DNA of 51,578 bases from Candidatus Micrarchaeota archaeon (GCA_043799765.1 JAZDNL010000080.1:1-51578); one strand, 5' to 3'. Positions 1,286-26,014 are shown, numbered from the stretch's first letter. Notes: generated by a model from the letters alone, not told the origin. Numbers and translations are program-made.

Positions 1286-1292
1286 TTCACAA

Positions 1293-2279: not shown

Positions 2280-2280
2280 G

Positions 2281-2311
2281 CTTTAAATTATCCGCCATTT
2301 ACTTAAATAGG
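2281..2311. promoter_or_regulatory. Divergent promoter spacer with two TATA-like boxes (CTTTAAATTAT, ACTTAAATAGG)
   Basis: Each box lies about 25 nt from one of the flanking start codons (ATG 2279 on minus, TTG 2315/2321 on plus). Confidence 0.45.
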
Positions 2312-2320
2312 TGTTTGTTT

Positions 2321-4951: not shown

Positions 4952-5376
4952 AGAAGGTTCGCGACGTGATGCGCAAGGGGTTCATTTCCATAGACAGCGG
5001 TGCTTCCGTGAAGGAGGCGTGCGCGAGGATGGCGGAACAGTGCAAGCCCGTGCTGCTCGTTCTCGACGGAGGCAAGCTTGCGGGGATACTCACGGACGGC
5101 GACATGCTGCGCGCGTTCTACCTCAAGGTTTCCACCTTTGCGCGCGGCGACGACGAGTTCTATAAGATGAAGGAAAAGGTGCAGGCGCTGGCGGACACGA
5201 AGGTTTCCGACATCATGACGCTTCGGCCCAAGACGCTGTCCGAAGACGACGACGTTTCGAAGGCGGCGGCGCTCCTGAGGCGGTACAATCTCAAGCGCAT
5301 TCCCGTGATCGACGCCTCGGGCAAGCCCTTGGGCACGGTGGAGCGTCTGGACGTAGTGATGAGCGTCCTGGAATAA
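4948..5376 (+). CDS. CBS-domain pair protein (142 aa)
   Basis: Two CBS repeats (VRDVM...LTDGDMLR; VSDIMT...IPVID). The ATG overlaps the ATPase stop (ATGA at 4948-4951). Confidence 0.85.
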   Translation: MKKVRDVMRKGFISIDSGASVKEACARMAEQCKPVLLVLDGGKLAGILTDGDMLRAFYLKVSTFARGDDEFYKMKEKVQALADTKVSDIMTLRPKTLSEDDDVSKAAALLRRYNLKRIPVIDASGKPLGTVERLDVVMSVLE

Positions 5377-5405
5377 TGAGCCGCTTCTCCGCCGATTCCC
5401 CTCCC

Positions 5406-7745
5406 CTATGCGCTGCGTGCTTTCTTCAGCAGCGCTTTCATCTCGGCGCTCGCCACGATGCGCCTCGTGACGTCGATTACGTCGGGGTTCACGGAGATGC
5501 TGTCGATTCCGAACTCGACCAGCGCCTCGGCGAACTCGGGATAAACGGAGGGCGCCTGCCCGCAGATGCCGACGCGCACGCCGTGCTTGTGGCAGCCGTC
5601 TATCACCGCCTTGACGCTCTTCAGCACCGAGGGGTCGCGCTCGTCGAAGTCCTCCGCCACTATAGTGGAATCCCTGTCGACTCCGAGCGTGAGCTGCGTC
5701 AAATCATTGCTCCCTATGCTCATGAAGTCAATTCCGATTTCGCAGAACTCCTCCGCCAGAACCACGGTGGAAGGAACCTCGCACATGATTCCGAACTTGA
5801 AGTCGTAGTTGCGCACCAGCCCCTCTTCCTCCGTTATGCGCTTGCATACCCTGAGCTCGTGCAGCGTGCGCACGAACGGGATCATCAGCCAAAGGTTCTT
5901 CATCCCGAACTCCTCGCGCACCTTCTTGATGGCGTGCAGTTCCATGCGGAACACGTCGGGGTCCTTGACGTATCTGAAGCAGCCGCGGTACCCTATCATC
6001 GGGTTCTCTTCCTGCGGTTCGAACTCCGCGCCGCCTTCGAGGTTTCGGTACTCGTTCGTCTTGAAGTCCGTTGCCCTGTATATTACGGGTCTCGGGTAGA
6101 ACGCCGAGCAAACCGTGCGCAATCCGTTCGCGAGCGCGTCGACGAACTCCTGCTCGCGGTGTTCCGCCACGAGCTTCTTCGGGTGCACGCCAAGCCCCGC
6201 GATCATGAACTCCGCTCTGAGCAGCCCGACGCCGTCGCAGTCCTTTGCGCCGACTTCCTCGGCTTTTTCCGTCTCCGCGATGTTCACGTAAATCTTAGTG
6301 CCTGTTATGACGTGGCTTGGCGCAGCCGCCATTACGACGGTAGCCGCCTGTCCTTCCACATGCGCGGGTTTCGCCGCGCCTTCTATCGACACCTCGCCGT
6401 CGTAGACGATTCCGCGCTTCGCGTCAACCGTGATAACCTGCCCGTCCTTCAGCTTCGCCGTCGCATCCTTGGTGCCGACGATGCACGGCACGCCCAGCTC
6501 GCGCGAAACAATCGCAGCATGGCACGTCATCCCGCCCGCATCCGTGACAATCGCGGCGGCGCGCTTCATGGCGGGAACGTAATCCGGGGAGGTCATCTTG
6601 GCGACCAGGACGTCGCCCTTGAGCACGCGGTCGATTTCGGACGCATCCCTGACTATCTTCACGGGACCCGAGGCTACGCCTGGGGACGAGCCCATCCCGC
6701 GAAGCAGCACGGTTCCGTCCCCCGCGGCAATGGGCGTGGCTGCCTGCACAGCCGCTTCAGCCTTCTTCTTCTTTCCGAGAGTGGTGATCGCGCGCGACTG
6801 CACTATGTAGCGTTTTCCTTTCTCGATGGCCCATTCGATGTCCTGGGGGAAGGCGTAATGCTCGTCGATTCTCCTTCCGAACTCCGCGAGCGCCACGATG
6901 TCGTCGTCCGTGATTTTCTGCGCCTCGCGCATCTCCTCGGGCACGTCGACGGTTTCGTCCCCGCCCTGGGGCGCGCGAATGATCATGATGTCCTGCTTCG
7001 CGATGTTCTTCTCGCGTATGGCGAGCGATTCCCTGTCCACTATGTACCTGTCTGGCGTCACCGTTCCCGAAACAATCGCCTCTCCCAGCCCGAAGCCCGC
7101 CTCGATGACGATGGCGCTCCTGTCCTCGGTCATCGGGTCTGCCGTGAACATTATGCCGCTCTTCTCGCTGTCCACCATCTTCTGCACGATGGCGCACAAA
7201 CCGACGCGCATGTGGTCGAACCCGTTCTCCACGCGGTAATAAATCGCGCGTGCCTCGAAAAGCGAAGCCCAGCAGTCCTTCACCGCCTTCACGACGCCGT
7301 CCGCGCCGGAAACGTTGAGAAAGGTCGCCTGCTGCCCCGCGAACGACGCCTCGGGCAGGTCCTCGGCTGTTGCCGAAGAGCGCACCGCGACCATTATTTC
7401 CTCGTTCATCGAGGGTATCAAATCCGTCCCGCACAGCCTGTTGTAGGCGCGCACGATTTCCGAGCGCGTCTCCTTCGGCATCTGCGACTCGACCATCGCC
7501 TTCTTGATGCGCACGCTCGCCTTCTGGAGCTTCAGCGTGTCCTGCACGTCTATGGACGTTTCGCTTCGGATGAGCGGCTCCAAGCCCGCGGCCTTTATGA
7601 ATTCGAAGTATGCGCCCGAACTGACAACGAACGCAGGCGGCACGGGGAAACCCGCCTTCGCCATCTCGCCGAGGTTCGCGGCCTTTCCGCCCGCAATGGC
7701 GAGGCTGTTCCTGTCTATCTCGTCGAGCCAGTAAACCGCTTTCAT
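5406..7745 (-). CDS. ppsA: Phosphoenolpyruvate synthase (pyruvate, water dikinase)
   Basis: N-terminal ATP-grasp (GGKAANLGEM), swivel His domain (GGMTCHAAIVSRELGVPCIVGT) and a C-terminal PEP/pyruvate TIM barrel (SIGSNDLTQ). Start taken at MKAVYWLDEI (7745), about 33 nt from a TATA. Confidence 0.93.
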   Translation of the reverse strand: MKAVYWLDEIDRNSLAIAGGKAANLGEMAKAGFPVPPAFVVSSGAYFEFIKAAGLEPLIRSETSIDVQDTLKLQKASVRIKKAMVESQMPKETRSEIVRAYNRLCGTDLIPSMNEEIMVAVRSSATAEDLPEASFAGQQATFLNVSGADGVVKAVKDCWASLFEARAIYYRVENGFDHMRVGLCAIVQKMVDSEKSGIMFTADPMTEDRSAIVIEAGFGLGEAIVSGTVTPDRYIVDRESLAIREKNIAKQDIMIIRAPQGGDETVDVPEEMREAQKITDDDIVALAEFGRRIDEHYAFPQDIEWAIEKGKRYIVQSRAITTLGKKKKAEAAVQAATPIAAGDGTVLLRGMGSSPGVASGPVKIVRDASEIDRVLKGDVLVAKMTSPDYVPAMKRAAAIVTDAGGMTCHAAIVSRELGVPCIVGTKDATAKLKDGQVITVDAKRGIVYDGEVSIEGAAKPAHVEGQAATVVMAAAPSHVITGTKIYVNIAETEKAEEVGAKDCDGVGLLRAEFMIAGLGVHPKKLVAEHREQEFVDALANGLRTVCSAFYPRPVIYRATDFKTNEYRNLEGGAEFEPQEENPMIGYRGCFRYVKDPDVFRMELHAIKKVREEFGMKNLWLMIPFVRTLHELRVCKRITEEEGLVRNYDFKFGIMCEVPSTVVLAEEFCEIGIDFMSIGSNDLTQLTLGVDRDSTIVAEDFDERDPSVLKSVKAVIDGCHKHGVRVGICGQAPSVYPEFAEALVEFGIDSISVNPDVIDVTRRIVASAEMKALLKKARSA

Positions 7746-7772
7746 AATCGCACCTGCACCTAGAACCCAACG

Positions 7773-7784
7773 CTTTTTAATAAT
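7773..7784. promoter_or_regulatory. Shared TATA box (CTTTTTAATAAT) between ppsA and the 7804/7848 unit
   Basis: Centre is about 26 nt upstream of ATG 7804 (plus) and about 33 nt upstream of ATG 7745 (minus). Confidence 0.45.
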
Positions 7785-7805
7785 CCTTGCGTGCGCCTTC
7801 TGCAT

Positions 7806-9940: not shown

Positions 9941-9961
9941 GGCGTTTTGATTCCGTTTTCC

Positions 9962-10090
9962 GTGGACGTCTTCGGGATCGCGCTCATTGCGGGAACGATT
10001 TACGCGGCGGCGAAGTACCTTCCTGATTTCTCTTTTGACGAGAGAGTGGCGGGGCTGGCGGTCATAATCGTCTACCTGCTGTCGCTCTGA
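9962..10090 (+). CDS. Candidate 42-aa membrane micro-protein (VDVFGIALIAGTIYAAAKYLPDFSFDERVAGLAVIIVYLLSL)
   Basis: Hand translation with a GTG start about 26 nt downstream of the TATA centre. Two hydrophobic segments. Confidence 0.35.
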   Translation: MDVFGIALIAGTIYAAAKYLPDFSFDERVAGLAVIIVYLLSL

Positions 10091-10092
10091 TT

Positions 10093-10680
10093 TTACGCCT
10101 GCTTAACTATCCGGTTGTACTGGTCCAGCGCAACCCACGCCTGTGCGTCGTCCTTCTCCCAGAAGCACACCCACGTGGAGGCGGGCAATCCGGCGGAGAA
10201 TGTTTCGAATTCCGAGCCGTCAAGCCACGGGCAATATTCCATCGCCTTCTTCTGGTCGTACTCCTGCAGGTAGAACGCGCATCCCCTCGCTCCGTCGCCG
10301 AGCGCGGTTATCTCCGCCAGTTTGCCAGAGTCAATAAGCGCCTCCTCCCTGTAAACGACGGGAGTCTTGACGGAGCAGTTCTTTATCGCGTCCTCCGGAC
10401 GGAAGCCGAAGGGCACGAGCGTGTAGTAGCGCCTCTGCACCGTCGGGCATTTCGCGTGCGGATTAAAGGCGACGCGCGCGTCGGCGCTCCATCCGCCGGG
10501 CGTCTGCTCCACGCTTAGCAGCTCAACGTAGGCGCCCGCGCCCTGCAGCGGCGTCAAATCGTCCATTATCAGCTGAGTCGCCTGCTCCTTCGTCAGCGTC
10601 GTGGAGGGCGTCGGGATCAGCATGTAAACGAGTATGGCTGCGACTAGTATCAGAACGAGCGCCGCCATCTTACGCAACAC
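10093..10680 (-). CDS. Membrane-anchored extracellular protein, unknown function
   Basis: N-terminal TM (AALVLILVAAILVYMLIP) followed by a Cys-containing soluble domain. Last gene of the pilin-like cluster. Confidence 0.6.
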   Translation of the reverse strand: MLRKMAALVLILVAAILVYMLIPTPSTTLTKEQATQLIMDDLTPLQGAGAYVELLSVEQTPGGWSADARVAFNPHAKCPTVQRRYYTLVPFGFRPEDAIKNCSVKTPVVYREEALIDSGKLAEITALGDGARGCAFYLQEYDQKKAMEYCPWLDGSEFETFSAGLPASTWVCFWEKDDAQAWVALDQYNRIVKQA

Positions 10681-10725
10681 ACAAATCCCCGACTAATTGG
10701 AGGCAGCCCGCACTTATAAACATTT

Positions 10726-11301
10726 TTAAGGAATAGGCGGCGGCGTGGGCGTCGGGCACCGCACCGCGTAGCCTGCAACGGCGTTTTCCCCTTCCGTAAG
10801 CGCCATGCGGAAAACCCCCTCGTCGTCGCGGGTTGCTTCGGCGTCAAGCGTGCGCACCATCATGCCGTTCTTGATCGCGTTCTTCGAGGAGGCGCCCATG
10901 GAAATCGTCGCCGAGACGTGGTACGCCGCGCCTTTCTCGCCGGAGGAAACCTCCTCGCACGATGACGCGCCCTCAAGAACGTACGCTATTTCGTGGGTCG
11001 AGTTCGCGTTCAGGCGCTTTGTTGCGTTCTCAAGGTATGCGGCGAGGTTCGCTCCGAAATAGCCGCAGAACGTGCTTTCCATGGAGCAGCCCCATGACGC
11101 GTACGCCGCGTCGGCCGCGCAGTCGTCGAACGCGCGGCTGTAGAAAGCCGCCGCGTCCTCGAACGCGAATGCGTTGTCCTGCGCTTCGGTTGAAACGAGC
11201 GAGAAGTCCTTGCCGCCCGAAATCCCGAGCGTGAGCCCCGCGAGCGAGGCGAACGAGACGGTGACCAAGGCGGCTACGATGGTGGTCATGAACGCCCTCA
11301 T
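10726..11301 (-). CDS. N-terminally anchored extracellular protein, unknown function (191 aa)
   Basis: MRAFMTTIVAALVTVSFASLAGL hydrophobic N-terminus. The ATG overlaps the upstream stop (ATGA at 11298-11301). Confidence 0.6.
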   Translation of the reverse strand: MRAFMTTIVAALVTVSFASLAGLTLGISGGKDFSLVSTEAQDNAFAFEDAAAFYSRAFDDCAADAAYASWGCSMESTFCGYFGANLAAYLENATKRLNANSTHEIAYVLEGASSCEEVSSGEKGAAYHVSATISMGASSKNAIKNGMMVRTLDAEATRDDEGVFRMALTEGENAVAGYAVRCPTPTPPPIP

Positions 11302-11678
11302 CTGCTCACCCACGCCTCACTCACGCTGTTTTCATCCGTCGCGTCGGTTTCCTTCAGGCAGGCGTCCGCCATGTCCACGACGGTTTGCCCCCCGCACAGC
11401 GGCGGGTATTTCCTGTGCTCGACGCGCAGCGCAATCTCCGCGTCCTTCGGCGCGACGTTCGAAATTTTCAGTGCGGTCATGGCGGTGAAATCGTCCCCGC
11501 TTATCCTGCCTTCCGAATTCATTGCCAGATAATCCCTTCCGAGCGCGCGCATCTGCCCGTATTTCAGGTGTTCTGATTCGGCAGCGGTCCCGACCGCGTT
11601 CCAGACGTACGCTACCAGAAGAACGAGGCTGAGCGCGAACAGCGCGTCGGCGGTGAATATGAAGCCCTTCAGCCGCAT
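11298..11678 (-). CDS. Type IV pilin-like protein (class III signal peptide)
   Basis: MRLKG/FIFTADALFALSLVLLVAYVW: basic residues plus Gly, an acidic residue at about +6, then a hydrophobic helix. Confidence 0.65.
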   Translation of the reverse strand: MRLKGFIFTADALFALSLVLLVAYVWNAVGTAAESEHLKYGQMRALGRDYLAMNSEGRISGDDFTAMTALKISNVAPKDAEIALRVEHRKYPPLCGGQTVVDMADACLKETDATDENSVSEAWVSR

Positions 11679-12007
11679 ACCCTCACCTCAAGCACGCACG
11701 CCGTGTCCCCGCACCGTTTCAGGCGCGAACCCGTAAGCGTGTTCCCCGGGCACGGCGTGCCGCACGTGTCCTGCCACGATGTGCCGTTAGCGTAGCGCAG
11801 GATTTGGCAGTAGTCCGCGCTCGGCGGCGCTTCGTTTGCCGCGAGCATGTGCGCGATTGTTTCCGCCTCGTTCGAGTAAAGCGCGCCGTAGTCGAGCGCC
11901 TTGCGCGTCGACATCTCGCCCGTCTGCAGGAGCATTCCCAGCGATACGCCGGATATCACGAGCACTCCCACGAAGAAGTCCATCGAAAGAAGTTGCGCCC
12001 TCTTCAT
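11669..12007 (-). CDS. Type IV pilin-like protein (class III signal peptide), 112 aa
   Basis: MKRA/QLLSMDFFVGVLVISGVSLGMLL. The ATG overlaps the upstream stop (ATGA at 12004-12007). The track ORF extends further upstream without support. Confidence 0.65.
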   Translation of the reverse strand: MKRAQLLSMDFFVGVLVISGVSLGMLLQTGEMSTRKALDYGALYSNEAETIAHMLAANEAPPSADYCQILRYANGTSWQDTCGTPCPGNTLTGSRLKRCGDTACVLEVRVCG

Positions 12008-12441
12008 CGGCACGCGCCCTCCCTTATCGCGGCTTTGCCGCTCGTGTTCAGCCACGCGCAGACGCTCATTCCAGTTTCGTCGCACTGTTCGTAGAAAGAG
12101 AAGTCCTCGATGCCGCAGACCACCGGTTTCTCAATCACCTGTGGTTCCTCGGACATGATGCGCATCGCGACGGAGTCTCCGCTCCTGTTGATCCAGTAGG
12201 GCACGCCCTCGCCGCCGGCTACGACGCAGGGGAGCGTGAACGTTATGTTTTCGCCGAAGGCGCAGGCGTCGTTCGCCGCGCCCGAGACGATTCCCGCGCC
12301 CACCATTCCCTGCGCGAGAAGGGACGTGCGCACTGTGCTGTCGCGCATCCCGCCCACCATGTAGTTCATCCAGTAGAGTATGAACGCGAAAAGCGCGAAC
12401 GCGAGGAACAACTCTATGGAAATCTGCCCGCGGCGCGACAT
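12004..12441 (-). CDS. Type IV pilin-like protein (class III signal peptide), 145 aa
   Basis: MSRRG/QISIELFLAFALFAFILYW matches the RGQ-ISxE class-III signal pattern. TATA lies 25 nt upstream. Confidence 0.7.
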   Translation of the reverse strand: MSRRGQISIELFLAFALFAFILYWMNYMVGGMRDSTVRTSLLAQGMVGAGIVSGAANDACAFGENITFTLPCVVAGGEGVPYWINRSGDSVAMRIMSEEPQVIEKPVVCGIEDFSFYEQCDETGMSVCAWLNTSGKAAIREGACR

Positions 12442-12460
12442 GAACGCATTACTCACGCTG

Positions 12461-12470
12461 TTTATTAAAA
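12461..12470 (-). promoter_or_regulatory. TATA box (minus-strand TTTTAATAAA) of the pilin-like operon
   Basis: Centre is about 25 nt upstream of ATG 12441. Confidence 0.5.
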
Positions 12471-12484
12471 TACACCGAACCCGC

Positions 12485-12602
12485 AAGGGGGGTTTCACCC
12501 CCCTTTCAGTTCAGCGGTTCTCCTGATTTCCCCCCGTTTTTAGTGCAGGTTTTGCGAACGCCGCGTCTTGCTGGACGCATGCCGCGGCATGCGTCATGTA
12601 AC
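12485..12602 (-). ncRNA. Candidate small transcription unit: TATA, 5' hairpin element, 28-codon ORF (12511-12597, MTHAAACVQQDAAFAKPALKTGGNQENR), G6/C6 hairpin
   Basis: TATA TATTTTAATAAG at 12623-12634, about 30 nt upstream. The G6-UGAAA-C6 hairpin at 12487-12503 follows the stop. No homology evidence. Confidence 0.3.
12574..12595 (-). repeat. Hairpin element copy 2: perfect 22-nt palindrome GACGCATGCCGCGGCATGCGTC followed by ATG (reads ATGACGCAT on the minus strand)
   Basis: Read directly from the sequence. Intergenic. Confidence 0.75.
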
Positions 12603-12626
12603 CGCGACGCGAGCAAAAAGTGCTTA

Positions 12627-13787
12627 TTAAAATACATGGAGGGACGCGCCAAGCGACCAAAGAATCGCGGGCAGAATCAGCGCGCCCATGGAGTAGCTGC
12701 GCCTTGTCCCCGAAAGAATCGGCATCACGCCTATTGCCGCGGCAATCCCGCAGACGAAAAGCCCCGCAGACCCCTCGAAGAGAAAAACCGCCGCGACTAT
12801 GGCGAGAAGAAGCGACGCGTACGCCTTCCTTCCTATCCTTATGCCGACGAACAGCCTATACGCCGCAAGAAGCGCCGCCACTGAAACGCAGAGCGCGAAC
12901 AGTCCCGCAGCAACGAGCATCGCGGTTTGCGTCCAATCGGTCCTGCCAAGAAAATCCTGCACCGCCGCTGCCGCTCCGGAGCGCGCCTTCCCGAGCATCG
13001 AAATTCCCGCGAAATCCGCCACCATCTTCGACGCGGTTACCGACGACGCCAGCACCAGGAACCCCTCGCCGCTCCATTCGCCGATTGCCATGAATGCCGC
13101 AGCACTCAGGAACGCCGGGTTGAGCGCGGGGAGTAATGGCGAGAAAACTCCCGCCACCGCGCCTGCTGCGATTAACGGCACGCCTGCCTTTACTTCCGCG
13201 CAGTCCTTCTGCTTCTTCGGTTCCCCTTCCCCCCGCATCGCGTTTAGCAGGGCGGGGATGCCGAAAAGCCCCGTGAGAAGCGGGAATAGCGGCTCGCGCA
13301 GAAGCGGCGTCGAGAAAACGAGAAAGCCGAACACTCCCGAAAGTGCGAACACAACCGTCCCCTTCCACTCCTTATCCGCCCATAGCGACGCTATGACTAT
13401 TCCCGAAAGCAGCGCCCATGTCAGCGGCTTTACCGCGCTGTAAAGCAGGGGCACGGCGAACCATGCGAACGGGAGCAGTGCAAGCGCCGCGACGATTCCT
13501 CCGAGCAAGCCGTGTAGCATTAATTTCAGCGCCCTTGCCCCCTCGCCCCGCAGTGCGAGCTCCTGCGCCGGAAGCACGGACGCGCTCTGCCCAGCGCTCG
13601 GAAGTGCGAAAAAAACAGCGGGCAGCGTTTCCGAAACCATGTGGCTGAACGCGAGGGCTACGACGAACACGCTTCCTTCGAGGCTGGGCAGCGACGGAAG
13701 GAAGCGTATCAGCAGATTAGTGTGCAAAAACGGAAGCAGTCCCGCCAGAAAGCCGACTACCGTCCCAGCAAGCACCCACGCAATCAT
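12627..13787 (-). CDS. Polytopic membrane protein, DUF112/TctA-like (COG1784-type)
   Basis: About 10 TM segments. GLLPFLHTN and VLPAQELALRGEGARAL resemble the GLiPGlHxN / LPxHxxxxxGxG signatures of the family. Family assignment is from memory only. Confidence 0.55.
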   Translation of the reverse strand: MIAWVLAGTVVGFLAGLLPFLHTNLLIRFLPSLPSLEGSVFVVALAFSHMVSETLPAVFFALPSAGQSASVLPAQELALRGEGARALKLMLHGLLGGIVAALALLPFAWFAVPLLYSAVKPLTWALLSGIVIASLWADKEWKGTVVFALSGVFGFLVFSTPLLREPLFPLLTGLFGIPALLNAMRGEGEPKKQKDCAEVKAGVPLIAAGAVAGVFSPLLPALNPAFLSAAAFMAIGEWSGEGFLVLASSVTASKMVADFAGISMLGKARSGAAAAVQDFLGRTDWTQTAMLVAAGLFALCVSVAALLAAYRLFVGIRIGRKAYASLLLAIVAAVFLFEGSAGLFVCGIAAAIGVMPILSGTRRSYSMGALILPAILWSLGASLHVF

Positions 13788-14140
13788 TTCAGCTCAACGC
13801 TTCTTGCAACCAGGCCGTCCTCGCCGAAAACGCCCTCTACGTCGGCGTAGCGGCCGCTTTTCACAGTGCGGAAATCTACGGGAAAGTTATCGGCGCGGAA
13901 AACCGCCACGTCAACGCAGCGTTTGCCGCACAGGCTGAAAAAAGCGTTCCCTCCCTCGACGCGCATCCCCTGAACCCTTCCCCACGCGATTACCAGCCTG
14001 CCGACGTCGCCGTCGTTCAGTTCGTCGACGGTTTTCTCCTCCGGCGTGAGCGTCGTGCCGAAGAACCAGAGCCCGGCGATTCCGATTGCCGCAAGCAGGG
14101 CGCATGCGCGGAACAGCGTTTCGTCGTCCATCTTACGCAC
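13784..14140 (-). CDS. Membrane-anchored small protein with an OB-fold-like C-terminal domain
   Basis: N-terminal TM (ACALLAAIGIAGLWFF) and a beta-rich domain (GRLVIAWGRVQGMRVEGGNAFFSL). Its stop overlaps the downstream start (ATGA at 13784-13787). Start is GTG 14140 or ATG 14131. Confidence 0.5.
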   Translation of the reverse strand: MRKMDDETLFRACALLAAIGIAGLWFFGTTLTPEEKTVDELNDGDVGRLVIAWGRVQGMRVEGGNAFFSLCGKRCVDVAVFRADNFPVDFRTVKSGRYADVEGVFGEDGLVARSVELK

Positions 14141-14495
14141 AGTATTGGTAGTTCGTCGCGATGACGCAGTAGGCGTTTTCCGTCTGCGAGTAGGGCGCCA
14201 GCACCTGCTTCACCCTCTGCGTGATGCGCTGCCTCATCGCTTCCGAGGCGCCTATGTTCCCGCCGCCTGCGTCATAGAGTTTGGGGCGGAGGGAGACGAT
14301 GCCGTTGGAGACGGAATAGTCCATTGAAGTGAACGTTATCCCCTCGGCGCTAGCCTCCTCGAAAGCCGCCATGCGCGCCGCGCCGACCCCGAGGTTGAGT
14401 TCGGTCTCGCGCAGCACGCCTATCAGCACGACCACCGCAAGCGTGACAAGGAATGCGACCACGAAGATATATTCGACGCTCGCTTGCGCCCTCAT
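14133..14495 (-). CDS. Type IV pilin-like protein (class III signal peptide), 120 aa
   Basis: MRA/QASVEYIFVVAFLVTLAVVVLIGVL. The ATG overlaps the stop of the beta-helix gene (ATGA at 14492-14495). Confidence 0.65.
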   Translation of the reverse strand: MRAQASVEYIFVVAFLVTLAVVVLIGVLRETELNLGVGAARMAAFEEASAEGITFTSMDYSVSNGIVSLRPKLYDAGGGNIGASEAMRQRITQRVKQVLAPYSQTENAYCVIATNYQYCA

Positions 14496-17053
14496 CTCTT
14501 GCGCCTCAACGCCCAGAACGCGAACAGCGCCGCGCCGAGCGCGAGCAGCGGCGTCATTTCGGGAGTTGCCTTCGGCGGCTGGCCGAATTTCACGACGTTT
14601 TCGGACCACGAATCGTACGACTTTCCGTTTATCACCGAGTGCGCCACGAGCGTATACGTTCCCGGCGCTTTCGTGTCAATCTCGAAAAGGTGCATGCCCT
14701 CTTGGCAGCCCTTGTATCTCCCCGCGCCGGCGTCCGCGCCGTCCCTGGTTGCGGTGAGCGTCATCGCAGGGTCGCACAGCCCCGTCCCGTTTATCAGGAG
14801 CGACACCGTCGCCTCGTACGTGTTTCCGAGCTGCAAGCCGGTGTGCCTCGCAACCTTGAAGTATACCCCCTGAGGAAGCGGAATCGTCGGCGCGCCCTGT
14901 CCCTGCGGCGGCGTGCTGGGCGTTTCCGTTGCCGCCATCATGCCCTTGATTATCACGGGCAGCATCGTCTCCTTGGTGAACGAGTCGTCGCCTGTTTCGC
15001 AATTATCGCCGGAACACGCCTCCCAGCCGTACGGGTTGTAATCTCCCGAATCGGCGAACGAAAGAACGCTTCCCGACATTCCCGCTCCCGCAGTGCTTCC
15101 GAAAACCCATTCAGTTGCGTTGAAAGGCGCAGTCAGCAAGCCGTTCCTGACAGTTCCGGAATATTTCTTTCCGGTGGTTTTGCTCGTCATCTTGAAGGTG
15201 CCGTCAAGCGGGTTGTCGTTCTCGTCGGTTACCCTGACCGCCACCCACCACTGCCTCTCAGCGGTGCTTGTCGCGTCGTTTATTATGTTCGCGTTCTGGC
15301 CGCAGTCGCCTGAGCAGCCGCCGAGGATTGTGTTAAGCAAAACGTAGTCCGCACCGTTCCTTCCCTCAACTGAGCCGAGCGTGTTTTTCTCGGAAACGCC
15401 GCTTCCGCCGTCGAAGAGAACGACTCCCAAATCGTTGTTGTAAAGGTAAGCCCCGCTTCCCTTAACGCTGACAGCAAAACCCTCCGCGGGTTTGATGCTG
15501 TTGCCCGAAACCACGCCGCCGTTGTTCAGGACGACTTTCGCGTACTGCTGTTCGGGAGGAACTGGCGTGGAAGCTGCCGGCGGCGTGGATGCCTGCCCTC
15601 CCTGTCCGGGAGCGCCTGTTCCGGTCTGCGCGCATCTCCAGCACGCCTGCCCGCTTTGGAGGCACGGGAAGGTCTCCTGCTGCCACGTGCCGGTGCAGAG
15701 CGGGAACGTCGGCTGCCCGGAAGCGCAGGTGTACGGGCACAGCGCCTCGAAGCTCGCCCTGCTCGCGGAAGAGCCGCTTATCCCGGTCGAAGCCTCGGAA
15801 ATCACGTTATTTTCGATGCGGCAGAAGCCGTCGCACGTTATGCTTTTCTCCGGTTGCAGCGCGATGCTGCTTTCCCTGATGACGTTGCTCCCGCTGCCTG
15901 CAGCGACGTTGCCCCCTGAAATCGTGATGCCCGCCGCGTCGGTTATTGTCACGCCCTCAATCGTGTTTCCCGCTCCCTCTACGGAAATCGTGATATTTTT
16001 GCCGAACGCGGTGTTCTTGACTGAGTTGTTGTTCCCCAGGCGAAGAACGGCGTTGTCCTCCGTGAACTGCGTCCCGTCGAAGACGTTGTTGTCGAATGCG
16101 GTGCCCGACGTTGTCTGCGAGTTCAGGACCATGTCCGAGTTCTCGAACTTCACGCCGTCGAACTTGTTGGAGTTGGCTTCGGGGTCGATACGCAACTCGG
16201 TTCCAACGGAACCGCCCTTAACGGTGTTGGAAGTCCCCCTTATGAAAAGTTTTCCGGCTATTGTGTTGTTTTCTAGAATATCTTCTTTAGAGTCCCAATA
16301 TTCAGTGCTGAGCGTTATGGAATATTCTGTCGGATCCCTGAAATCGTTCCCACTAATCGTGCTTGAATTGGTTTTAACCAAGCCCAAACCGTTCGGATTG
16401 TTGAAGACGTTGTCCGAAACTACGTTGTTAAGACACGAACTCAAAGAAATAGAATACTGAGCTGGATCGTTTGTGGAAAACTCGTTGGAAGAAATCTCTA
16501 CGGAACTCGAATATTCAACAAAAACCGCTTGTTTCTCGCAGTTGTTAAACTGATTTCCAATTATTTTAGCACTGTCTGCCTGACTAAGCAGGACACAGAC
16601 GCGATTACTTCCGAAATAGTTATTTTCTATAATCACTCCGTTCGCCTTAACTAACAATCCCATTTTGTTATTTTCAGAAGAAATATAGCCGCATTCGCTT
16701 ATCTTGCTGTCGCGCATTTCAAAATTCGAACCCGCATCAACCCAGAACGTGTATCTGTTCTCGTTCGCCGACTTTATCTCGGAGGATGCGAGGATGTTCA
16801 TCGTTCCGCCCTTAACCCAGATGTTGGCGGTTCCGTTGGATGCACCGTCCATTATGAGCGTCGTTCCACTGAGTAGAAGCGTTCCGCCCGAATTGACGAC
16901 GACTGTGGGCGTTTGGATGGTTCTGCCCGTAAGATCGAGCGTCTGTCCAGTTGCGACGGTTATGCCCTTAGGCATCTGTTCCGTCGTTGCGGCGGCGACA
17001 AGCGTCGCACTGGCAACCAGATAAAGCAACAGCCTAGCGATATTCTTCATCAT
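14492..17053 (-). CDS. 853-aa secreted right-handed beta-helix (PbH1/NosD-like repeat) surface protein with C-terminal TM anchor
   Basis: Signal peptide. Repeated N/S/G-rich about 22-aa units (IIGNQFNN..., VVSDNVFNN..., ISGNDFRD...). Cys-rich and Pro/Thr linker. The C-terminus is PLLALGAALFAFWALRRKR. A GGAGG sits 8 nt upstream of the ATG. Confidence 0.85.
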   Translation of the reverse strand: MMKNIARLLLYLVASATLVAAATTEQMPKGITVATGQTLDLTGRTIQTPTVVVNSGGTLLLSGTTLIMDGASNGTANIWVKGGTMNILASSEIKSANENRYTFWVDAGSNFEMRDSKISECGYISSENNKMGLLVKANGVIIENNYFGSNRVCVLLSQADSAKIIGNQFNNCEKQAVFVEYSSSVEISSNEFSTNDPAQYSISLSSCLNNVVSDNVFNNPNGLGLVKTNSSTISGNDFRDPTEYSITLSTEYWDSKEDILENNTIAGKLFIRGTSNTVKGGSVGTELRIDPEANSNKFDGVKFENSDMVLNSQTTSGTAFDNNVFDGTQFTEDNAVLRLGNNNSVKNTAFGKNITISVEGAGNTIEGVTITDAAGITISGGNVAAGSGSNVIRESSIALQPEKSITCDGFCRIENNVISEASTGISGSSASRASFEALCPYTCASGQPTFPLCTGTWQQETFPCLQSGQACWRCAQTGTGAPGQGGQASTPPAASTPVPPEQQYAKVVLNNGGVVSGNSIKPAEGFAVSVKGSGAYLYNNDLGVVLFDGGSGVSEKNTLGSVEGRNGADYVLLNTILGGCSGDCGQNANIINDATSTAERQWWVAVRVTDENDNPLDGTFKMTSKTTGKKYSGTVRNGLLTAPFNATEWVFGSTAGAGMSGSVLSFADSGDYNPYGWEACSGDNCETGDDSFTKETMLPVIIKGMMAATETPSTPPQGQGAPTIPLPQGVYFKVARHTGLQLGNTYEATVSLLINGTGLCDPAMTLTATRDGADAGAGRYKGCQEGMHLFEIDTKAPGTYTLVAHSVINGKSYDSWSENVVKFGQPPKATPEMTPLLALGAALFAFWALRRKR

Positions 17054-17118
17054 AGCAGTTCCCTCCTACTCAAAACGACTCACGGAGGGAATACTGGGCG
17101 GCTATATTAAAAGGTAGC

Positions 17119-17150
17119 GAAAAAGAAGGGAAAAAACGGAAAGAAAGGGA
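17119..17150 (-). terminator. Oligo-T tract cluster (minus strand TCCCTTTCTTTCCGTTTTTTCCCTTCTTTTTC)
   Basis: Immediately downstream of the 17153 stop. Archaeal terminators are typically T-runs. The next promoter (CTATATTAAAAGG, 17102-17114) follows. Confidence 0.5.
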
Positions 17151-17152
17151 GT

Positions 17153-17815
17153 TTAGCGTCTGGCCCGTTTCGTCTTTAGAACTGAAGCAGTGCGCCCCGT
17201 AAGTACGTCAATATAGTCGCCGAGATAGCTTACGAATGGTGCGCACACTGACGTATAGTCGGGCGCAGCAACCGCGGTCGCACGTTTTCCGCCAAATCCA
17301 TCCCACGCGACGTCAATTCTTACCTGCGGCGGACTTCCGCCCTGCTGGTTTCCGTTCTTAATCGGAGGGCAGCCCGCAAGCACCCACGCCGAGGAACTAG
17401 ACGTAAACTGTCCTCCCGTCAGCGTTACCTGCGCCAAGTTATGCCACGAGTAAAGCGGCCCCTGCGGAACAGAATTAGCAGTTCCGCCTTTGGTGGTTCT
17501 GCTTCCCAGCACCTGTACTCCCGAACCACCTTTTATTCCGTTGACGTCCGTGAACTGCTCGTAGCAGGTAAGCGTCGCTGGATACATTCCAGAATACGCG
17601 AACGACGTTAGTTCGACCTTGAACATCCTTCCAGCCGAAGGATGCCCAGTCGGTCCTACCGAATAAATCCAGCCGTGGTTGCTTCCGGAAACGCACAGCC
17701 AGGCCGAATATGTCCAAGAGCCCTGCGGCATGTCATGTTCCGCCCAGCAATCAACTGCGGAAACGAACGGCAGCAACGCCGCAACCAGAATCCCGAAAAC
17801 GATTTTGTTCATCAA
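17153..17815 (-). CDS. Secreted Cys-containing protein, paralog A (220 aa), unknown function
   Basis: Sec-type signal (ALLPFVSAV/DCW). Shares a family with 17822-18340, including a 48-aa identical block. Confidence 0.7.
   Translation of the reverse strand: MMNKIVFGILVAALLPFVSAVDCWAEHDMPQGSWTYSAWLCVSGSNHGWIYSVGPTGHPSAGRMFKVELTSFAYSGMYPATLTCYEQFTDVNGIKGGSGVQVLGSRTTKGGTANSVPQGPLYSWHNLAQVTLTGGQFTSSSSAWVLAGCPPIKNGNQQGGSPPQVRIDVAWDGFGGKRATAVAAPDYTSVCAPFVSYLGDYIDVLTGRTASVLKTKRARR
17298..17425. repeat. 128-bp block identical to 17847-17974
   Basis: Base-by-base comparison. Identity extends to 17289/17838 with 2 mismatches. Confidence 0.9.
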
Positions 17816-17821
17816 AAAACC

Positions 17822-18340
17822 TCAGCGCTTACTCTTACCGCCGAACCCATCCCACGCGACGTCAATTCTTACCTGCGGCGGACTTCCGCCCTGCTGGTTT
17901 CCGTTCTTAATCGGAGGGCAGCCCGCAAGCACCCACGCCGAGGAACTAGACGTAAACTGTCCTCCCGTCAGCGTCACCGTCTGCCCCGTGTACATCCACC
18001 AATAATTCCCAGGAACGCCCATCTGTTTGTAGCACTTCAGCGTCGCCGGATACATGCCCGAATATTGGAATCCCTGCAGATAAACCTTGTACGTCTGCCC
18101 GGCTTCCGGATGTCCGGAAGGCGCAGTCGTGACAATCTGCCCGTGCAGCATCATCGAGAACGGTCCGCTCTGCCCGTATATATTACAGAAATAACCCACG
18201 ACCTGCGTGGAGTTGCACGTCCACGCGGACCACGTCCACAGTCCGTTCTGCATCTGCTGGACATCCCAGCAGCTGGCAGACGCGAAAGTCGCAGCAGCGA
18301 CGAAAACGAGTCCGAAAACGATTGCCTTCCAGTTCGTCAT
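17822..18340 (-). CDS. Secreted Cys-containing protein, paralog B (172 aa), unknown function
   Basis: Sec-type signal (AAATFASA/SCW). Shares SGMYPATL.CY and the identical VTLTGGQFTSSSSAWVLAGCPPIKNGNQQGGSPPQVRIDVAWDGFGGK block with paralog A. Confidence 0.7.
   Translation of the reverse strand: MTNWKAIVFGLVFVAAATFASASCWDVQQMQNGLWTWSAWTCNSTQVVGYFCNIYGQSGPFSMMLHGQIVTTAPSGHPEAGQTYKVYLQGFQYSGMYPATLKCYKQMGVPGNYWWMYTGQTVTLTGGQFTSSSSAWVLAGCPPIKNGNQQGGSPPQVRIDVAWDGFGGKSKR
17847..17974. repeat. 128-bp block identical to 17298-17425
   Basis: Base-by-base comparison, offset 549 nt. Confidence 0.9.
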
Positions 18341-18369
18341 ATTGTTTCCTAATTAGTTCGTTTCCGGCG

Positions 18370-18377
18370 TTTATAAA
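18370..18377 (-). promoter_or_regulatory. Palindromic TATA box TTTATAAA upstream of the paralog pair
   Basis: About 30 nt upstream of ATG 18340. Confidence 0.5.
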
Positions 18378-18581
18378 TGTTACCTTTCAGTAGTTACAAT
18401 AAGGCAGTAACACGTCTGGCCGGCGGCTGGCTTCCCTTCAAAACCGTGTCAGTAACCGTTACTCCGTCCGCGTTTTCAACCAGCAGCGCAGTTGCGTTTT
18501 TCGCGCCCCTGGAACCGCATGTGAGCCTCCGGAGGTGTTACCCTTTTCGAGATGCGGCTCCAAGGGTTTCGCGGTTTGCCC

Positions 18582-19031
18582 TCACTGCAGCCTCGCGCAC
18601 GCAATTCTCGCCTTTCCGTTGTAGTTTTCCACGGTCACGCGGTACCATCCGGCTTCGAGAGGAGTGGCGCACTGCATCAGCACGTCCCCGAGCAGCCGCC
18701 TTCCAAACACCCGCCGGCCGCTGATGCCGAAATCGCGCATCCTCTCCTCCTCTAGCGTGCAGTAAATCGCCTTTTCCGCGTCGTCGTAGAAGAAGCAGTT
18801 GGTTTCCGCGCCCGCGAACACGTCGCGATGAAGAACGCTGCCGTTCCCCGAAAGGGTGACATAGTTGGCGGCAAACGAAACGTCGTCAACAAGCGTTTTC
18901 GAGAGCAATGCCGCATCAAGCGTGCGGGTGCGCGCGGTTTCGCCGGTCGCAACAGTATAAAGCAAAAGCATGAAGGCGATTATAACCGCCGTCACGAGGA
19001 AGAATTCCACGCCGAGCTGCGCCTTTCGCAT
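18582..19031 (-). CDS. Type IV pilin-like protein (class III signal peptide), 149 aa
   Basis: MRKA/QLGVEFFLVTAVIIAFMLLLY. Starts 6 nt downstream of the prepilin peptidase gene. Confidence 0.7.
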   Translation of the reverse strand: MRKAQLGVEFFLVTAVIIAFMLLLYTVATGETARTRTLDAALLSKTLVDDVSFAANYVTLSGNGSVLHRDVFAGAETNCFFYDDAEKAIYCTLEEERMRDFGISGRRVFGRRLLGDVLMQCATPLEAGWYRVTVENYNGKARIACARLQ

Positions 19032-19037
19032 GATTCC

Positions 19038-19475
19038 TCAAACGATTCCCGACTTAAATAATGCTGCTGTTGCGAGCGTTCCCGCGCATAGGAACGGGAC
19101 AAAGGACGCTTTTCCCCGCAGGGTTTCGCCGCGAACCAGCCGCCATCCCGCCATCAGCATCGCCGCCGCGACGAATGAAATCGGCAGCATCATTATCTCC
19201 GCGCCGTCCGCAAGCAGAGGCATCCCCGCCGAAAGCGCGATGAAGCACTTGGCATCCCCGCCGCCCCATATTTTGAAGAAGAAGAGCGCATAGGCGAAGG
19301 CGAACGACGACAGGATGAAAGCGAGGTAAGCGGTTGCGTCTTCCGCCATCATTACCCCTGCCGCCCCTGTCGGCAAAAAATAGAGCGCGTTGAGTTCATT
19401 CGGCACCCTTTTCTCGCGGACGTCGTGCCACGACGCTATTGCGGCGTAAACAAGGGCATTCGCCTCGAACAGCAC
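19038..19475 (-). CDS. Archaeal A24-family prepilin/preflagellin peptidase (short form, 145 aa)
   Basis: Two catalytic Asp contexts: WHDVREKRVPN and WGGGDAKCF. About 5 TM segments. GTG start about 23 nt from the TATA. Confidence 0.75.
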   Translation of the reverse strand: MLFEANALVYAAIASWHDVREKRVPNELNALYFLPTGAAGVMMAEDATAYLAFILSSFAFAYALFFFKIWGGGDAKCFIALSAGMPLLADGAEIMMLPISFVAAAMLMAGWRLVRGETLRGKASFVPFLCAGTLATAALFKSGIV

Positions 19476-19492: not shown

Positions 19493-19503
19493 CTTTTTAA
19501 TAT
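19493..19503. promoter_or_regulatory. Shared TATA box (CTTTTTAATAT) between the prepilin peptidase gene and pyrD
   Basis: About 23 nt from GTG 19475 (minus) and about 25 nt from ATG 19523 (plus). Confidence 0.45.
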
Positions 19504-24242: not shown

Positions 24243-25880
24243 TCAGTCGTCGCCCCTGAGGAACTTCATCAGGCGCGTAAAGCGCCCCTGCGTCATCTGC
24301 GGCGCGGATGGCTGCCCGCCGAACTGCTGCTGCTGTTGCGCCGGCTGGTATTGCTGGGGCGCCTGCGGCTGTTGCGGAATCACCGGCTTCTGCTGCGGAG
24401 GCTGCTGGAGCTTGCGTATGTCGACAGGTTCGCCGCTGAGCGCCTTCTCCTCGTCCTTCATCTTCTTCAAATAGTAGAGCCCTCCCACGAGCGTGAGCAG
24501 CAGTATGATCCCGCCGCCGATGGTGACGAAGTCGATTTCGTTCTCCTTCGGCATCGTCGCCTGCGCGCGGTTCGCGAGAGCGGTTGCGTTCGTCGCAATC
24601 TGCCCGAACAGTTCGGCGTTCACCTTGCCCTGCTTGAGGAACGCCTCGTTGGAGCGGAGCGAAACCTTCAGCGCCTGCAGCTCCCTCTGCATGTCGACGA
24701 CGCGCTCATCGTTGTTGCCGAGGCGCTTCGTCAAGTCGTCTATGCCCGAGGTGGCGTTCGCAACCGCGAGGACGCTAAGCGAGTAAGTGGGGTACAAATC
24801 GTTGTACGTCTTCAGGGCCGCGTCCATCGCCGCGCTCGTGTTGGTGAAGTTGGCGGCAATTGCCGCCGAGGACGTGTTGCCGCCCGTTGTCAAGAGCGAG
24901 CTTATGAGCGTGCCTTGGAGCGTCTGGAGTTCTCCGAGCTTCGTGTTGAGGTAGGTGATGTCCACCTTGTTCACCGCCTTGTACTTCATCACCGTGGCGT
25001 TCACCTGCGACGCGGTTTTGTTGAGCGTCTCCGTCTGCGCCGCGATGGTGTGCCTGGTTGCCGCGCGTTCCTTCCTGGTCGCAGTCGCGGCGATTACCTG
25101 CGACGTGATGCGCGTTGAGTTCGGGAAGCCGGTTCCGCCGGTCGCATCCATTATGTCGTTGAGCGCCATGGTAAGGTTCGCGTTCTCGGCGCAGGAGCGG
25201 AGTTCGCCGCGCACGTAGAACGCGTAGTAGAACGTCGCGACTATCAGATTGTGCGAAACCGTGAGGTTGGCGTATTTGTCGCTGATGATTTCCGCGCTTG
25301 TGCGTATGTCGCCGTTTTCCTTGGATATCCTGTCGATGTCCCTCCGCGATATCGCCGCGTCCATGTCCACGATGCTTCCCTGCATTTCCAGCACCGCGGC
25401 CTCAACCGCGGGATACGTCGCATTCAGCGAAAGCATCGCGTCATACTCGTTGTAGTATTGGCCGCGGGCGGCGCGTATGAGCAGGTACGGCATCGCGTAG
25501 ATCGTCTTGGGTATGAATGCCTTAACGCCCTCGGCGCACCCGCCTGCGGTTTCATTCACTACCAGGAAGTCGGTGGCGATCCTGTCGCGCTTGCTGCTGT
25601 AGTTGTAGGAGTCGAAGCGCGCCTGCAGGTATCGCTTCACCAGCTCGGTGATGCGCGCCTCGTCGGTTACCGGCTCCACCCTGCCCGCCTTCTGCTCGAG
25701 AAGGACCGTTTCGGCGTTGTTCGTCAGCACCATGTAGATGCTGTCGTCGGGGTTCGGAAGCTGCACTAGCGTGGCGGTTTCGCCCGTTTCCGCGTAAAAC
25801 AGCGCCTCGTCGCTGACATTCAGCGCGAAGGCGAACGACGCGGCGATGAGCGCGAAAAATAGCGCTGTCTTAATTCGCAT
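24243..25880 (-). CDS. Type I membrane surface protein, helical and rich in N-x-S/T sequons, with a Gln/Pro-rich cytoplasmic tail
   Basis: Signal peptide (ALFFALIAASFAFALN). C-terminal TM (IGGGIILLLTLVGGLYYL). Tail is PPQQKPVIPQQPQAPQQYQPAQQQQQFGGQP. Confidence 0.75.
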   Translation of the reverse strand: MRIKTALFFALIAASFAFALNVSDEALFYAETGETATLVQLPNPDDSIYMVLTNNAETVLLEQKAGRVEPVTDEARITELVKRYLQARFDSYNYSSKRDRIATDFLVVNETAGGCAEGVKAFIPKTIYAMPYLLIRAARGQYYNEYDAMLSLNATYPAVEAAVLEMQGSIVDMDAAISRRDIDRISKENGDIRTSAEIISDKYANLTVSHNLIVATFYYAFYVRGELRSCAENANLTMALNDIMDATGGTGFPNSTRITSQVIAATATRKERAATRHTIAAQTETLNKTASQVNATVMKYKAVNKVDITYLNTKLGELQTLQGTLISSLLTTGGNTSSAAIAANFTNTSAAMDAALKTYNDLYPTYSLSVLAVANATSGIDDLTKRLGNNDERVVDMQRELQALKVSLRSNEAFLKQGKVNAELFGQIATNATALANRAQATMPKENEIDFVTIGGGIILLLTLVGGLYYLKKMKDEEKALSGEPVDIRKLQQPPQQKPVIPQQPQAPQQYQPAQQQQQFGGQPSAPQMTQGRFTRLMKFLRGDD

Positions 25881-25919: not shown

Positions 25920-26014
25920 CCCGCTGTAGCTCAACCTGGCAGAGCGTCTGACTGTAGTTTGTTGCGCGAAGAGCGGATATCAGAATGTTGCCAGTTCAAA
26001 TCTGGCCGGCGGGA
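25920..26014 (+). tRNA. tRNA-Tyr (anticodon GUA) with a 21-nt intron at the canonical 37/38 position (25958-25978)
   Basis: Hand-folded: C1:G72 acceptor CCCGCTG/CGGCGGG, D arm GCTC/GAGC, anticodon stem TCTGA/TCAGA, loop CTGTAG|intron|A, T arm GCCAG-TTCAAAT-CTGGC. CUGU (loop) can pair with GCGG (intron), leaving 3-nt bulges at both splice sites, consistent with bulge-helix-bulge. Confidence 0.88.

Follow-up and report, generated by a model that had tools for sequence, protein, structure and literature searches.

A prepilin peptidase and pilin-like gene cluster of a Micrarchaeota archaeon, probably the accessory part of an Epd/Tad-like type IV filament operon

How a prepilin peptidase and a series of pilin-like genes come to stand together without a recognisable assembly motor is the question raised by positions 10093-19475 of a contig from Candidatus Micrarchaeota archaeon (GCA_043799765.1 JAZDNL010000080.1:1-51578), whose entire stretch of 51,578 nucleotides is termed here the window. 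Thirteen co-directional open reading frames (ORFs), all on the minus strand, fill this region (Table 1), as an earlier note on the same DNA had placed them when it described an orphan island of pilin-like proteins and adhesins. DPANN archaea, Micrarchaeota among them, live in attachment to host cells, and little is known of their means of attachment and uptake. The cluster is probably the promoter-proximal peptidase and minor-pilin/accessory part of a Micrarchaeota-wide Epd/Tad-like type IV filament operon of clade 1, or system 1.

Gene order was compared across Pfam-annotated contigs carrying homologues and 80 loci from a genome collection, for which 14 closer sequences served as query, the gene content of the loci being read by iterated profiles of each window protein over all six-frame ORFs. 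The 29 micrarchaeal loci (26 non-redundant) share one order as far as the contigs reach: an A24 peptidase, two pilin-like genes with Gln at position +1, a transmembrane (TM)-anchored OB protein, a TctA-family protein, four pilin-like genes and one N-terminally anchored protein, often with a secreted protein of ~170 residues between the second pilin-like gene and the OB gene. This order is seen with Pfam labels in loci L001, L003 and L004, and is usually followed downstream by RLI, on the opposite strand, and Pelota. Upstream of the peptidase gene, 6 kb or more of sequence is available in fourteen non-redundant loci. In eight of them two T2SSF (TadC-like) genes and three to six tiny Flp/Epd-type pilins lie directly upstream of the peptidase, a T2SSE ATPase being also present in seven of the eight (confirmed by Pfam in L010, L020 and L028); the remaining six, the window among them, have no adjoining motor. 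The relatives' ATPases are named CpaF family by NCBI, and ATPases of that name are carried by Micrarchaeota generally. The L004 genome has its ATPase, T2SSF pair and tiny pilins immediately on the far side of a four-gene insertion. Because the string of genes in relatives continues upstream into tiny pilins, TadC-like genes and mostly an ATPase, the cluster is read as the accessory half of a pilus operon, which in full runs ATPase, two TadC genes, tiny pilins, peptidase, two pilin-like genes, OB, TctA, four pilin-like genes and one anchored protein. The island is therefore an orphan only locally, and the earlier description does not hold beyond the window.

Two side observations concern the motor genes of relatives. 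The block inserted in the L004 genome (L086 13388-17570 / L004 4-5598) encodes phosphodiesterase/sulfatase-type enzymes, a UbiA prenyltransferase and a radical SAM protein, and separates the motor and tiny pilins from a second tiny-pilin set and the peptidase. Micrarchaeal type IV pilus (T4P) ATPases are often ~950 residues long with intein-splicing, LAGLIDADG and helix-turn-helix Pfam matches (P0090, P0101, P0123, P0124, P0126, P0128 and others), so the pilus ATPase gene is a recurrent intein host in Micrarchaeota.

The six pilin-like positions of the cluster each present an N-terminus that is conserved across ~25 genomes (Table 1). The window therefore contains six class-III candidates and not the five previously counted; all five N-termini quoted earlier are present, and the sixth, MRA/FMTTIV at 10726-11301, displays the same K/R-G/A-aromatic signature. 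The motif of pilin-like 3 stands directly downstream of TctA in ~24 of the 29 micrarchaeal loci, those in which the profile detects the gene, and pilin-like 6 has four conserved Cys residues. Three window proteins carry [AG]/Q.[SG].E[FYL]. A strict motif, [KR][GAS]Q...[ED][YFL] followed by hydrophobic residues, has three matches among all six-frame ORFs of the window, each within the cluster, and a looser rule retrieved ten distinct ORFs among 1323 tested starts, comprising the six cluster genes and four antisense or internal artefacts. The class-III assignment of the window proteins, which draws on motif, position and operon context, is a prediction. The last protein of the cluster displays conserved Cys/Trp residues and a plain N-terminal membrane anchor; the class-III motif was found in none of its orthologues, it has no Pfam or PDB relative, and PDB sequence searches returned no match for either of the last two cluster proteins.

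The first gene of the cluster encodes a protein that matches Peptidase_A24 at 35.2 bits (cut-off 26.5), with no match in a PDB sequence search. Asp-18, in the context D-x-R-x-x-x-[IV]-P-[ND], and Asp-74, in the context W-G-G-G-D-x-K-F, are invariant in 20 of 20 micrarchaeal orthologues, and we take both to be catalytic by analogy with FlaK/PibD. The Pfam score and the two aligned Asp residues bear out the short A24 peptidase proposed at 19038-19475. Only ~26 nt separate its start from the likely start of the divergent pyrD, and the sequence TTAAAAAG fits a candidate promoter that would give a leaderless operon transcript. In two sister contigs (L006 and L007), which do not include the peptidase, pilin-like 1 or the two secreted paralogues, the nine genes that begin with the beta-helix gene and end with the last one of the cluster stand in the same order. 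The ratio of non-synonymous to synonymous substitution rates (dN/dS) is 0.07-0.40 at dS 0.44-1.09, and the nine compared genes are under purifying selection.

Several observations weigh against the assignment to a pilus operon. A Pfam scan of the large ORFs revealed no T2SSE or T2SSF in the 51.6-kb window, and the relatives' ATPase and TadC profiles matched nothing in any stop-to-stop ORF of the window, the ATPase profile even at E<=10, in agreement with the earlier report of no PilB/FlaI-type ATPase or PilC/FlaJ-type platform. No ORF anywhere in the window encodes a short major pilin that lacks a globular domain, and the relatives' tiny-pilin profile found nothing outside the cluster in any stop-to-stop ORF. 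When the N-termini were checked with the Pfam class-III model PF04021, pilin-like 2 scored 14.2 bits and pilin-like 3 scored 13.7 bits, both under the cut-off of 23.7, and the remaining pilin-like proteins of the window gave no match; the tiny pilins of relatives pass the same cut-off with 24.8-36.9 bits. Among 20 orthologues of 145-362 residues, the window peptidase (145 residues) is the shortest; it matches Peptidase_A24 only in Pfam and lacks the Arc_PepC domain found in EppA-type enzymes. Conserved gene order also counts for less than it ordinarily would, since the unrelated housekeeping genes RLI and Pelota are likewise conserved beside the cluster. Membership of the ATPases in the clade is taken from names given by NCBI and by Golyshina et al., and the operon itself is known from gene sequences only.

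The lack of a motor or major pilin within 51.6 kb, shared as to the adjoining motor by six of the 14 comparable loci, would also suit a module that makes no filament, in which the peptidase processes surface proteins with class-III signals that are kept membrane-anchored by their hydrophobic N-termini, as are some archaeal substrate-binding proteins. Peptidases of the PibD type provide a precedent for non-pilin substrates (PMC4858521). This reading is nevertheless very unlikely, as seven to eight genomes have orthologues of the cluster genes in an unbroken series with those for ATPase, TadC and major pilins, the Q+1/E+5 N-termini are pilin-type and CpaF-named ATPases are general in Micrarchaeota.

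The short peptidase could likewise be taken for the mark of a pilus operon that lost its motor and is decaying. One to six tiny pilins precede the peptidase in every other locus with at least ~0.5 kb of upstream sequence, the window being the sole exception. However, all ORFs are intact, both catalytic Asp residues are kept, and the dN/dS values of the nine genes and their order in two sister genomes argue against decay. Peptidase length varies at a constant position: orthologues of 335-362 residues hold the same place in L001, L010, L012 and L020, with Arc_PepC confirmed in the long forms of L001/L002 and L010, and peptidases of 148-163 residues are found in loci with an adjoining motor (L028, L041 and L079). 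Since such short forms occur beside motor genes, a short peptidase is not a sign of decay, and the idea of a decaying remnant is largely refuted and retains hardly any credit.

The assignment to a filament operon accommodates the missing motor if the motor and major-pilin genes were split off by rearrangement in the genome of the window and act in trans. For archaea it is documented that pilins and ATPase/TadC modules can be encoded in trans (PMC4858521). The peptidase would then trim six pilin-like precursors, and the trimmed proteins may prime or decorate a thin pilus for contact with host cells or surfaces; the cell-cell attachment or surface role suggested earlier is in keeping with this scheme and is rated as plausible only.

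The OB and TctA proteins are encoded at the centre of the operon. The TctA-like protein matches PF01970 with 97.6 bits over profile positions 2-422 of 423 and is 84-91% identical to Micrarchaeota proteins; its 54 homologues are mostly from DPANN, nearly all of the named ones being Micrarchaeota. An AlphaFold2 (AF2) model is all-helical and confident (predicted local distance difference test score, pLDDT, 92). A Foldseek search of the PDB with this model returned no match better than E 0.065 (TM-score 0.21), and the model therefore gives no mechanistic information, for want of a structural neighbour; PDB sequence searches gave chance-level matches only. In proteins of the OB family one N-terminal TM helix precedes an OB domain, PF01336 being matched by 26 of 31 positional orthologues (best E 2.5e-10) and PF13742 by 15. 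In the PDB the family profile matches the AspRS anticodon-binding OB domain, RPA32 and Stn1; upon iteration the profile also pulled in the AspRS anticodon-binding domain, and matches were filtered by size and position. The window copy shares 89% identity with its counterpart in Ca. Norongarragalina meridionalis, near which the genome of the window is placed within Micrarchaeota; it has no Pfam match itself, and its AF2 model, from a four-sequence alignment, is unusable (pLDDT 48.6), so that its predicted OB fold is taken from the orthologues. No TctB or TctC Pfam match was found in the cluster proteins or in the neighbourhoods of relatives. TctA probably serves as a secondary transporter, with the OB protein as a partner exposed to the outside.

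In 18 micrarchaeal loci the OB and TctA genes are direct neighbours, frequently overlapping by 4 nt, and they occupy the same mid-operon position in every micrarchaeal locus with both flanks. A further 17 loci, from Woesearchaeota, Nanoarchaeota and other DPANN, have the two genes side by side, their vicinity being free of pilin, peptidase and motor genes except in L077, and more distant TctA homologues are found in housekeeping gene contexts. The corresponding family, arCOG04469 (TTT-class transporter), is present in single copy in 13 of 15 DPANN genomes (PMC5498576). OB-TctA is thus an ancient and nearly universal DPANN two-gene module, and its place in the pilus operon is Micrarchaeota-specific. 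The coupling of a DUF112/TctA protein and a TM-anchored OB protein to a pilin-like gene, as noted earlier, is confirmed by the overlaps, although the pair is not peculiar to the island. L077, a non-micrarchaeal DPANN contig that bears the label "uncultured Methanosarcinales", has a T4P cluster (475-7656; pilin-like genes, T2SSE and two T2SSF genes) 2.3 kb upstream of the TctA-like gene (9947-11146), the only such case among 52 non-micrarchaeal loci. The pair in a pilus operon appears to be undescribed: title and abstract searches of the literature yielded no account of it, a 2026 preprint on archaeal type IV filament (TFF) systems does not mention it, and the accessible portions of the text and supplement of Makarova 2016 hold no DUF112, TctA or tricarboxylate entry.

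A pair placed in this way could be the purpose of the pilin-like proteins rather than their passenger. These proteins would then form a short pseudopilus or bindosome-like scaffold, and no adhesive pilus, that passes a substrate to the anchored OB protein and the TctA permease, the substrate being nucleic acid or oligonucleotides (PF01336-type OB) or a host metabolite; such a device would be an archaeal analogue of the competence pseudopili with ComEA/ComEC or of the Sulfolobus bindosome. The constant mid-operon position and the translational coupling of OB and TctA to pilin-like genes on both sides would be expected of it. The OB family matches nucleic-acid-binding OB folds, one member weakly matches DUF4131 (the ComEC N-terminal OB), and the relatives' ATPase scores on the bindosome BasE model, below the cut-off. 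These points are offset by the 17 adjacent pairs without pilins in other DPANN lineages, by the housekeeping contexts of distant TctA homologues and by the near-universal, single-copy occurrence of arCOG04469 in DPANN, which suggests a pilus-independent role. Moreover, the tiny Flp/Epd-type pilins of relatives argue for a true filament, the operon includes no nuclease or DNA-processing gene and the window also encodes nucleotide biosynthesis genes. We therefore consider a pseudopilus dedicated to uptake unlikely. A broader version, in which the ancient DPANN uptake module of OB and TctA-type permease has been built into the filament operon so that one machine captures and imports host material, possibly nucleic acid, has an equally small chance of being correct; if true, it would provide an archaeal counterpart of competence pseudopili or of the bindosome, and one that employs a transporter family not known to have been connected with such filaments.

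For a link between the pair and the filament stand the conserved position and translational coupling, and against it the independence of the pair elsewhere and the generally high synteny of the region. On balance we lean towards OB-TctA being tied to the pilus genes by co-expression rather than by a mechanical role in assembly, the pair being presumably co-transcribed with the pilus genes in Micrarchaeota. If the pair does work with the filament, it links type IV filaments to a secondary transporter; if independent of it, it is still a near-universal DPANN membrane module.

The variable cargo of the cluster is the cassette of two secreted paralogues and the beta-helix protein only. The two Cys-containing paralogues described earlier are confirmed as such (51% identity, E 4e-55), and a block of 144 nt is 97% identical between them (17286-17429 and 17835-17978), which points to a recent event of gene conversion or acquisition. 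From 16000 to 18500, a stretch comprising both paralogues and the N-terminal half of the beta-helix gene, GC is 48-56%, compared with 60-63% in the rest of the cluster. The secreted family was found in only three other loci (L003, L013 and L040), where it lies upstream of the peptidase; in L003 its genes are followed by a 1321-residue NosD protein. That the order secreted-secreted-beta-helix recurs at another insertion point suggests an adhesin-type unit that is mobile and evolves fast. The 853-residue protein, also confirmed by Pfam (Beta_helix PF13229, 67.9 bits; NosD PF05048, 56.8 bits), comprises a Sec signal, a right-handed beta-helix, Cys-rich and Pro/Thr linkers and a C-terminal TM anchor ending in RRKR, and its gene holds the same place in sister genome L006. 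A PGF-CTERM/archaeosortase signal was considered for its C-terminus and rejected, as there is no PGF motif and no Pfam match, and the end is a plain TM segment with RRKR. The Sec-secreted paralogues and the C-terminally anchored beta-helix protein may thus form a cassette of adhesin type, variable and of distinct composition, that was inserted into the operon, and this cassette is a candidate determinant of host specificity.

New here are the architecture of the operon across the phylum, a sixth class-III candidate and the OB-TctA pair as a fixed insert. The earlier claim that the combination is undescribed holds only locally: the OB-TctA placement appears to be undescribed, but clade-1 T4P were already reported in Micrarchaeota (PMC5498576, Golyshina 2017), and system 1 is reported in DPANN (10.64898/2026.04.22.720090).

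The features of the cluster are collected in Table 1. Six junctions overlap when starts are set by the conserved N-termini: four by a 4-nt ATGA (beta-helix to pilin-like 2 at 14495, OB to TctA, pilin-like 3 to 4 at 12007 and pilin-like 5 to 6 at 11301), one by 8 nt and one by 10 nt, in line with the many ATGA overlaps mentioned before. The gaps between blocks measure 241, 99, 185 and 45 nt. The 185-nt non-coding gap between TctA and the next pilin-like gene (12442-12626) corresponds to ~25-90 nt in relatives and could leave room for an internal promoter or other regulatory element. A Pfam family is assigned to three of the 13 proteins (A24 peptidase, TctA and beta-helix) and none to the other ten, and NCBIfam has no family for any cluster protein of the window.

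Table 1. Positions of the cluster features in the window, with the basis of each assignment and the N-terminal motif of orthologues.
Feature	Position	Strand	Basis and remarks	N-terminus in orthologues
TATA-like box TTAAAAAG	19493..19500	-	18-25 nt upstream of peptidase GTG start	
A24 prepilin peptidase, 145 aa, first operon gene	19038..19475	-	Pfam Peptidase_A24	
Pilin-like 1 (upstream 1), MRKA/QLGVEFF (Q+1, E+5)	18582..19031	-	motif and positional orthologues; matched by tiny-pilin and pilin profiles	[KR][GAS]/Q[LI][GS][IV]EFF
Secreted Cys-containing paralogue A, 172 aa, Sec-type signal	17822..18340	-	sequence	
Secreted Cys-containing paralogue B, 220 aa	17153..17815	-	identity to paralogue A; in low-GC stretch	
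Beta-helix surface protein, 853 aa	14492..17053	-	Pfam Beta_helix and NosD	
Pilin-like 2 (upstream 2), MRA/QASVEY	14133..14495	-	motif; start overlaps beta-helix stop by 4 nt	/Q[AS][GSA][VI]E[FY]
TM-anchored OB protein, 118 aa	13784..14140	-	orthologue alignment and PF01336 in orthologues; overlaps both neighbours	
TctA/DUF112-family polytopic membrane protein, 386 aa, arCOG04469-type	12627..13787	-	Pfam TctA	
Pilin-like 3 (downstream 1), MSRRG/QISIELF	12004..12441	-	motif conserved in orthologues	[KR][GA]/Q.S[LI]E[LMF]F
Pilin-like 4 (downstream 2), MKRA/QLLSMDF	11669..12007	-	motif conserved in orthologues; ATGA overlap	[KR][GAS]/Q[LIF][FL]S[MLV]D[FL]
Pilin-like 5 (downstream 3), MRLKG/FIFTADA	11298..11678	-	motif conserved in orthologues	[KR][GA]/F.FT.DA
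Pilin-like 6 (downstream 4), MRA/FMTTIV, 191 aa from ATG at 11301	10726..11301	-	motif conserved in orthologues; ATGA overlap if start = 11301	[KR][GA]/F..S
Last operon gene, 195 aa, plain N-terminal anchor, unknown fold	10093..10680	-	orthologue alignment	

The window as a whole has a GC content of ~60% and carries housekeeping genes for aRF1, a Na/Ca exchanger, a P-type ATPase, phosphoenolpyruvate (PEP) synthase, RLI, AspRS and MetRS, together with CTP synthase, PurA, a thermosome subunit, PurF, FolD and Nop56. A 95-nt tRNA at 25920-26014 (+; Rfam 55.5 bits), not reported by ARAGORN, is probably an intron-containing archaeal tRNA; because the longest MetRS ORF (25959-27638) overlaps it at the 5' end, the true MetRS start is likely to lie further downstream. 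Two further secreted proteins, one of 778 residues with many Ig-like/NPCBM_assoc/FixG_C-type repeats (29297-31633, +) and one of 545 residues with a signal peptide and no Pfam family (24243-25880, -), are possible S-layer or adhesin proteins. Tandem genes at 43802-44410 (-) and 44483-45154 (-) encode proteins of 202 and 223 residues that match only the Lon protease C-terminal proteolytic domain. A 492-residue protein at 40831-42309 (-) comprises the PEP-utilizers mobile domain only, and a complete PEP synthase is encoded at 5406-7805 (-).

Among known systems, the competence pseudopilus and the Sulfolobus bindosome (Bas) resemble the cluster in that pilin-like proteins are genetically coupled to an uptake device, ComEC having an extracytoplasmic OB fold; the likeness is a functional analogy only, without apparent homology to ComEC, ComEA or the Bas substrate-binding proteins. 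The 386-residue protein is similar to the permease of TctABC, matching Pfam TctA over the whole profile, but it is ~100 residues shorter than bacterial TctA and its conserved partner is the TM-anchored OB protein, not TctB or TctC. With bacterial Tad/Flp systems the operon shares tiny Flp-like pilins with a [GA]/x...EY motif, two TadB/TadC-type platform proteins, a short dedicated A24 peptidase without a methyltransferase domain (TadV-like) and downstream pseudopilins (TadE/TadF). It differs from them by its archaeal host, the embedded OB-TctA pair and the absence of a secretin or outer-membrane parts.

Closer in lineage is the clade-1 system of Ca. Mancarchaeum acidiphilum Mia14 (PMC5498576), also from Micrarchaeota, with a CpaF-family ATPase, two TadC proteins and a peptidase (MIA14_0570) far from the ATPase/TadC genes (MIA14_0170-0173). 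The account of Mia14 gives no pilin-like genes, OB protein or TTT transporter as parts of the system, and MIA14_0570 is likened to the window peptidase by description only.

The closest counterparts are the Epd pili studied in Methanococcus maripaludis, which represent archaeal T4P clade 1 (Makarova 2016) and system 1 of the 2026 preprint. The window peptidase is a 145-residue core without the Arc_PepC/9-TM extension of the EppA type (arCOG02300), the clade-1 accessory arCOGs of Makarova, as far as that source was accessible, include no TctA/DUF112 or OB protein, and the cluster has a beta-helix protein in place of a DUF2341/PilY-like adhesin. The likeness between the minor pilins EpdA-C and those of the cluster is limited to the signal motif. 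On the other hand, in both cases a dedicated A24 peptidase heads a run of several minor pilins, predicted as such in the cluster, with class-III signals and Gln at +1, and the operons of relatives contain, like Epd, tiny major pilins without a globular domain, two TadC-like genes and a CpaF-named ATPase. The likeness to the EppA/Epd loci of methanogens proposed earlier is thus strengthened by the relatives, in which Arc_PepC peptidases and tiny pilins that pass PF04021 accompany these motor genes; as in Epd, parts of the system may sit at separate loci.

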